NCBI GenBank assembly: GCA_025544715.1
Contig: GCA_025544715.1_4109.2
Strand: one strand, 5' to 3'
DNA from: Escherichia coli
Lineage (GTDB): Bacteria; Pseudomonadota; Gammaproteobacteria; Enterobacterales; Enterobacteriaceae
Length of the DNA: 64,000 bases
The position numbers and the translations under genes were made by a program. The number at the start of each line of letters is the position of its first letter. Positions within the stretch are counted from its first letter, which is position 1. The notes below the pieces were generated by a model. That model was not told where the DNA came from, did not search any database, and saw nothing but the letters and a program-made list of their open reading frames with translations. Below, one piece after another: positions 4,746-4,791 of the stretch.

Positions 4746-4791
4746 TGCCGACTACCGGAATCGAACTGGTGACCTACTGAGCTAAGTCGGC
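4746..4791 (-). pseudogene. tRNA remnant: acceptor stem + D-stem 5' half + T-arm, no anticodon arm
   Basis: Minus-sense GCCGACT-TA-GCTCAGTAGG-TC-ACCAG-TTCGATT-CCGGT-AGTCGGC-A; 7-bp acceptor pairing and T-loop present, anticodon arm absent. Confidence 0.4.

Follow-up and report, generated by a model that had tools for sequence, protein, structure and literature searches.

A tRNA-Thr(UGU) pseudogene in an Asteriusvirus genome that probably arose by deletion between short direct repeats of a thrU-type gene

What is a tRNA-like sequence without an anticodon, and how did it come to lie in the genome of a jumbo coliphage? This question is raised by 46 nucleotides on the minus strand at positions 4746-4791 of a 64,000-nt stretch of DNA (hereafter the window), which belongs to an Asteriusvirus, a 121Q/PBECO4-like jumbo coliphage. 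Over 25 kb, the window is 95-97% identical to known Asteriusvirus members, and it is identical to none of them. We propose, with a probability of roughly 0.85, that the 46 nt are a recent, private and non-decoding tRNA-Thr(UGU) pseudogene, which originated from a repeat-mediated deletion at a recurrent hotspot.

The genes around the remnant are encoded on the minus strand. Read in this direction (4791 to 4746), its sequence is GCCGACTTAGCTCAGTAGGTCACCAGTTCGATTCCGGTAGTCGGCA (46 nt), or GCCGACUUAGCUCAGUAGGUCACCAGUUCGAUUCCGGUAGUCGGCA at the RNA level. It starts with the 5' strand of an acceptor stem, GCCGACT (4785-4791), which is paired in the fold as well as in the Rfam alignment, and it ends with the 3' strand AGUCGGC followed by the discriminator base A (4746-4753). 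The resulting 7-bp acceptor stem (GCCGACU/AGUCGGC) is perfectly paired. Downstream of the 5' acceptor strand follow U8, A9, the 5' strand of the D-stem (GCUC) and the D-loop bases AGUAGGU, which a single C separates from the T-arm (ACCAG UUCGAUU CCGGU, 4754-4770). The T-arm contains one A.C mismatch inherited from thrU; the same mismatch is present in the parent allele discussed below, which equals the chromosomal E. coli tRNA-Thr (thrU). G18 and G19, the normal docking partners of the T-loop, are still present, and the 3' strand of the D-stem and the anticodon stem-loop are missing. The 3' end does not encode CCA but reads CAAAT, and the intact alleles of related phages likewise lack an encoded CCA. 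A sequence-only reading had described a 46-nt tRNA remnant without an anticodon arm at these coordinates, with a perfect acceptor stem, a recognisable T-arm and a partial D-arm. All three elements are found by direct reading of the minus strand, and both coordinates and description are borne out by the sequence and the Rfam alignment.

tRNA detection tools see this sequence in part or not at all. ARAGORN calls neither a tRNA nor a tmRNA at 4746-4791. It finds six tRNAs elsewhere in the window (Asn, Met, Ser, Arg, Ser and Gly), and tRNA-Thr is absent from its calls over the whole window. When 12 kb were searched, the Rfam tRNA model (RF00005) did not match the site; with the search restricted to 141 nt, it matched exactly 4746-4791 on the minus strand with 26.4 bits (E = 6.8e-4), which falls below the gathering score of 29 bits. 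Here, acceptor stem and T-arm are aligned, and the model segments for the D-arm and the anticodon arm are skipped, so that the covariance model does not find a complete tRNA. Of the canonical tRNA hallmarks, the remnant therefore has the 7-bp acceptor stem with discriminator and the T-arm with the T-loop consensus; it lacks a complete D-arm and an anticodon stem-loop, scores below the gathering threshold and escapes detection by ARAGORN. ARAGORN and the 12-kb Rfam search rule out a complete tRNA or tmRNA at the site, and neither program returned a family-model match to tmRNA or another described tRNA-like RNA. Besides the sub-threshold tRNA, the one Rfam match at the site is a plastid element on the opposite strand, which mirrors the tRNA. 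Among the tRNAs that are called, the tRNA-Asn(GUU) at 7068-7152 (minus strand) is 85 nt long and has an apparent long variable arm (GUCA-GAAA-UGAC), which is unusual for tRNA-Asn; BF17 has a different, 73-nt tRNA-Asn allele in this place.

Comparison with related phages places the remnant at a known tRNA locus. An intact tRNA-Thr(UGU) gene (anticodon tgt) occupies the same position in 121Q, BF17 and other Asteriusviruses, where it sits between the homologue of a 143-aa ORF (4298-4729 in the window) and a 37-aa ORF. The position of the remnant is orthologous, with the same flanking ORFs and the same leader as in 121Q, BF17 and CMSTMSU, and alignment of the window with 121Q and BF17 shows one clean 27-nt gap inside the tRNA and collinear flanks. 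All 46 nt of the remnant (46/46) agree with the terminal portions of the intact tRNA-Thr(UGU) at the orthologous position of the relatives, and the similarity to a tRNA is therefore not a matter of chance.

We surveyed the alleles of this locus in 13 relatives. In BF17, CMSTMSU and Ecwhy_1, a thrU-type copy precedes another tRNA-Thr(UGU) of different sequence (copy 2), and four more records have the same two-copy length. Single copies are found in 121Q and A4, with the anticodon stem UUCCU/GGGAA, and in PBECO4 and WPEC3, with the anticodon stem AUCCC/GGGAA. UE-S1 has another divergent tRNA-Thr, and EJP2 a decayed copy without an anticodon. In WPEC5 (697-1229 of L007) and vB_Ec-M-J (397-917 of L021), the locus holds a very different tRNA-Thr(UGU), GGTCGATTAG..., with an HNH endonuclease gene directly after it. 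This suggests a mobile cassette of tRNA and homing endonuclease that has replaced the resident alleles in these two phages. The 27-nt deletion is unique to the window phage among ~37 sequenced relatives. A BLAST search against 50,697 phage records gave no gap-free match across the deleted region, and exact-junction scans of IMG/VR with 32-nt and 22-nt patterns returned no match.

Which of these alleles gave rise to the remnant? The best fit appears to be the first copy of BF17, CMSTMSU and Ecwhy_1, the probable parent. Over its 73 nt, this allele shows 100% identity to the chromosomal tRNA-Thr of virtually all complete E. coli genomes (at least 5,420), and judging from this identity it is a copy of the host thrU. 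In CMSTMSU and Ecwhy_1 it reads GCCGACTTAGCTCAGTAGGTAGAGCAACTGACTTGTAATCAGTAGGTCACCAGTTCGATTCCGGTAGTCGGCA, and the 64 nt upstream of the remnant show no mismatch to either phage. The 9-nt sequence TCAGTAGGT occurs twice in the parent, at tRNA positions 12-20 and 39-47 (0-based 11 and 38), which are 27 nt apart; no other allele compared at this locus has this repeat. The first copy spans the D-stem and D-loop, the second the 3' strand of the anticodon stem and the variable loop. Removal of one repeat together with the 18-nt spacer (27 nt) from the parent yields exactly the 46 nt of the window (46/46 identical), in which tRNA positions 1-20 are fused to positions 48-73. The single remaining TCAGTAGGT (4772-4780, minus strand) marks the junction. 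The precise breakpoint is ambiguous, with 10 equivalent deletion start positions that all give the window sequence. An internal exact repeat of at least 9 nt was present in only 787 of 200,000 shuffles of the parent tRNA. The alignment to intact tRNAs of relatives, which the sequence-only reading had named as the way to identify parent and deletion junction, thus supplies both: a thrU-identical tRNA-Thr(UGU) and a 27-nt deletion between the two copies of the repeat.

Other parents have to be weighed. A PBECO4-type allele could yield the same product via 4-nt microhomology and an A4-type allele via 2-nt microhomology. The alleles of 121Q and WPEC3 have the T-loop TTCAATT, and no 27-nt deletion from them gives the window sequence. 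We also considered unequal crossover between the tandem copies 1 and 2, which is rejected on the 3' part of the remnant (ACCAG...AGTCGGC), as this is of the copy-1 and not of the copy-2 type. The second tandem tRNA-Thr copy is absent from the window; this reflects either an 81-nt deletion with 4-nt microhomology or a single-copy ancestor.

In the sequence of events that we favour, the ancestor of the window phage would have held a host-thrU-identical tRNA-Thr(UGU) at this locus, as CMSTMSU, Ecwhy_1 and BF17 do today. The two TCAGTAGGT copies may then have misaligned, through replication slippage or through single-strand annealing after a break, and one repeat would have been lost with the 18-nt spacer (27 nt altogether). 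Such a deletion would have taken the 3' half of the D-arm, the entire anticodon stem-loop and most of the variable loop.

A different route to a tRNA fragment is the integration of a mobile element. The prokaryotic tRNA gene fragments described by van der Gulik et al. (2023, PMC9897764) originate from genetic-element integration, a common source, or from CRISPR-Cas activity, and the sequence-only reading had raised the point that such remnants often mark past recombination at tRNA genes. The remnant might accordingly be the scar of an att site in the tRNA gene, or of the imprecise loss or gain of an HNH-endonuclease/tRNA cassette like the one that WPEC5 and vB_Ec-M-J carry, together with their different tRNA-Thr, at this exact locus. 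An enzyme of the HNH type could even have made the break that set off single-strand annealing between the repeats. However, att fragments are 3' pieces next to inserted element DNA or an integrase, whereas the remnant keeps both ends of the tRNA. Moreover, the conserved flanks enclose no foreign DNA, and what remains of the tRNA corresponds to the thrU-type allele and not to the HNH-associated one. We regard a scar of this kind as very unlikely, and integration as such is rejected on the collinear flanks and the presence of both tRNA ends. What stands of the proposed recombination is a deletion within the gene, from one short direct repeat to the other; an integration or att-type scar is not seen.

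Since the deletion is unique among ~37 sequenced relatives, it might also be suspected of not being the natural genotype but an artefact of sequencing or assembly, or else a minority variant that arose on passage in the laboratory. To this we assign a small chance, as an assembler would not be misled by a repeat of only 9 nt, the sequence on both sides is clean and collinear, and the same junction is found in independent assemblies of unrelated organisms and is hence a real biological outcome. An exact search with the junction pattern TAGCTCAGTAGGTCACCAGTTC gave matches at three sites in 185,579 species-representative genomes and on four metagenome contigs. In Photobacterium proteolyticum, the 46-mer has one difference in the T-loop (TTCGACT), an encoded CCA and a terminator, and lies downstream of tRNA-Asn. 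In Aeromonas sobria there are two paralogous copies, whose acceptor stem (GCTGGCT/AGCCAGC) is fully paired and differs from that of the window. The T-stem is ruined (CCTCT for CCGGT) in one of these two copies and in all three matching metagenome contigs, making the decayed form the commoner Aeromonas version. Intact tRNA-Thr(UGU) genes with the Aeromonas acceptor stem contain TCAGTAGGT at the same two positions. The A. sobria copies (14-62 of L004 and 5320-5368 of L005) share their flanks and lie at the edge of a cluster with a LuxR-type regulator and the T6SS genes Hcp/PAAR/VgrG; they may mark island boundaries. An integrase was looked for beside them, and the neighbours proved to be the LuxR-type regulator and the T6SS genes instead.

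Within E. coli, the full 46-mer occurs in one of 5,426 complete genomes, that of strain A10. There, it is part of a prophage-like tRNA array adjoining an IS4 pseudogene, and its CCA is changed to TCA. In the homologous prophage array of RM10740, located between DUF1133 and lysis genes, the gene is intact, and comparison of the two arrays gives the identical 27-nt gap. The A10 element is also present on one metagenome contig. The tRNA beside the deleted tRNA-Thr in A10 (1553-1624 of L013) reads as tRNA-Glu(UUC), and its RM10740 homologue (1668-1742 of L022) is a tRNA-Gly(UCC). With the anticodon loop CCTTTCAGG in A10 and CCTTCCAAG in RM10740, this prophage-borne tRNA seems to have switched its anticodon.

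The copies in A10, P. proteolyticum and A. sobria share with the window the junction ...GCTCAGTAGGTCACC... and the overall architecture. They differ from it in their unrelated flanks and, in Aeromonas, in the acceptor stem; some encode CCA and some are decayed. In total, the same junction has arisen at least four times independently, each time in an accessory, dispensable copy, and was not passed on by homologous inheritance. This pattern would be expected of a mutational hotspot if its products persisted only in places where the tRNA is redundant. To our knowledge, thrU is the only tRNA-Thr(UGU) gene of E. coli. In principle, selection instead of a mutational hotspot could also account for the recurrence in four lineages.

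A separate case of loss at this very locus comes from EJP2. Its tRNA-Thr pseudogene (690-760 of L006, minus strand) is a copy-2 allele with ~10 nt deleted across the anticodon loop, a further 1-nt deletion in the acceptor stem and substitutions, and ARAGORN makes no call for it. Like the window remnant, it is an Asteriusvirus tRNA-Thr(UGU) at the same locus that has lost its anticodon by internal deletion; unlike the remnant, it derives from copy 2, with no long repeat involved. EJP2 has thus independently lost the anticodon at this locus, which implies that the gene is dispensable.

Is the remnant still expressed? The sequence-only reading had placed it in a non-coding gap of ~600 bp. The gap does extend from 4730 to 5327 between the long ORFs, but it is not devoid of features. 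It contains a small 37-aa ORF (4868-4981, minus strand), which is annotated in relatives, and a stable hairpin of 57 nt (4801-4857, minus strand), which lies 10 nt upstream of the remnant and folds with -20.5 kcal/mol (z = -3.3; 0 of 200 shuffles were as good). The hairpin is conserved in all relatives examined. Across eight of them, its pairs are kept through one-sided G.U/A-U/G-C changes, with no double compensatory change, and this pair switching fits pairing within a minus-strand RNA. It has no Rfam match and no U-tract and is not an obvious terminator. The hairpin is probably in the same transcript as the remnant and could act as a leader or processing signal, or represent a small RNA of its own. 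Upstream of small ORF, hairpin and remnant, a sigma-70-like promoter match (TTGACA-17-TAATAT) is located at 5025-5053 on the minus strand. This is a consensus match only, and with two promoter-like sites found against 2.7 expected in shuffles, the evidence for it is weak. The remnant is probably still part of a transcript. The same intergenic region contains the palindrome ATTCAGTACTGAAT in two exact copies (5174-5187 and 5295-5308), 121 nt apart. Up to two mismatches allowed, the window has 10 occurrences of it where 0.69 are expected, the other sites being at 3418, 3453, 4022, 8517, 22323, 38865, 58860 and 60963; it is a candidate operator or regulatory motif.

If transcribed, the remnant RNA would be unable to decode, because it has no anticodon. 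At most, it may be trimmed to an acceptor/T-arm minihelix. RNase P and the CCA-adding enzyme accept such minihelices, and with stems, promoter-like site and leader hairpin intact, a stable minihelix RNA could still be made. This poses the question whether the remnant is a functional 'top-half' mini-tRNA that is processed by RNase P, trimmed at its 3' end and tailed with CCA, and that acts for instance as a decoy or sponge for enzymes or immune nucleases directed at the acceptor end or elbow of tRNAs, or for ThrRS. The acceptor stem, the T-arm and G18G19 are all kept, the hairpin and the promoter-like site upstream are intact, and the identical architecture is found in four lineages, with an encoded CCA and a terminator in the Photobacterium copy. 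In addition, defences that hit tRNA tails exist (PMC12851939). Against this, the allele is private to one phage genome, the oldest instances (Aeromonas) have lost the T-stem, A10 has lost its CCA, and the 9-nt repeat fully accounts for the recurrence. The nearest-neighbour energy model disfavours the T-arm fold as well: at -11.8 kcal/mol it ranks behind a minimum free energy of -13.3 kcal/mol, i.e. non-canonical pairing is slightly preferred, and the whole 47-mer folds with a z of -2.1 only. Furthermore, P2-OLD, the one defence known for this tRNA, recognises the anticodon stem, which is the missing part (PMC12445682). We therefore hold a functional mini-tRNA to be very unlikely. Its broader form, in which phages and mobile elements would have repeatedly gained a top-half tRNA mimic through the 9-bp repeat of thrU-type genes as a decoy for tRNA-tail nucleases, ThrRS or the CCA-adding enzyme, strikes us as barely plausible. 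Instead, the remnant is most likely without function, a recent and unselected loss, because the allele is private, the Aeromonas copies decay, the EJP2 gene was inactivated independently and the repeat explains the recurrence.

Loss of this particular tRNA may still have consequences. As reported by Govande et al. (2025, PMC12445682), OLD, a nuclease of the P2 prophage, kills cells through cleavage of host tRNA-ThrU. The cuts fall at a paired CNG motif, between nt 28/29 and after nt 40, so that both strands of the anticodon stem are severed. Coliphage tRNA-Thr(UGU) genes with an altered CNG and a shortened stem are reported to resist cleavage and to rescue translation of ACA, for which the UGU anticodon is essential, and extra thrU gives little or no protection from OLD (PMC12445682). 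At the locus studied here, the anticodon stem is hypervariable (ACUGA/UCAGU, AUCGC/GCGAU, UUCCU/GGGAA and AUCCC/GGGAA), and the rest of the tRNA is nearly constant. Among these four, the thrU-identical copy, with CUG/CAG in its stem (ACUGA/UCAGU), is the only one that keeps the CNG; copy 2, the 121Q-type and the PBECO4-type have no CNG on either strand, and in the PBECO4-type allele 27-43 is mispaired. We infer that the allele diversity reflects selection by OLD-like nucleases, in which case the thrU-identical copy would be the least protective and most expendable one. The relatives have at least five tRNA-Thr(UGU) alleles, most of which lack the CNG at which OLD cuts, and the conflict between OLD and tRNA-ThrU is likely to be fought out at this locus. 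ACA accounts for 40% of the Thr codons in window ORFs of at least 120 aa, and loss of the tRNA-Thr is therefore not obviously neutral. The window phage no longer supplies its own tRNA-Thr(UGU) and should be wholly dependent on host tRNA-ThrU. This predicts that it is more sensitive to OLD-type depletion of tRNA-ThrU than relatives with variant alleles.

Taken together, we propose that the phage be listed without a functional tRNA-Thr and that 4746-4791 be marked as a pseudogene. The locus offers a clean natural case of repeat-mediated deletion, in which the 9-bp repeat of thrU-type genes has led to loss of the anticodon arm on four or more separate occasions, each of them in an accessory copy that was dispensable. 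A limited literature search found nothing specific on this deletion or hotspot, or on anticodon-less phage tRNAs. Compared with thrU of E. coli and the phage copies in CMSTMSU, Ecwhy_1 and BF17, the 46 retained nucleotides are identical, and the remnant shares its place in the genome and its flanks with the phage copy; what it lacks are the 27 nt of the 3' D-arm, the anticodon stem-loop and most of the variable loop. With the phage tRNAs that counter OLD (PMC12445682), it shares the isoacceptor and the coliphage origin, and its sister alleles have altered anticodon stems without CNG, one of them shortened, which is the kind of change that reportedly confers resistance to OLD. In contrast to these tRNAs, the window copy comes from a thrU-identical allele, is now deleted and cannot replace cleaved host tRNA. 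Similar to the prokaryotic fragments described in PMC9897764, it is a partial, non-canonical tRNA gene that is not to be counted in the tRNA set. Unlike those fragments, it results from an internal deletion between 9-bp intragenic direct repeats, with both termini kept. The remnant is thus a tRNA pseudogene, a known kind of object, whose mode of origin differs from the usual type.
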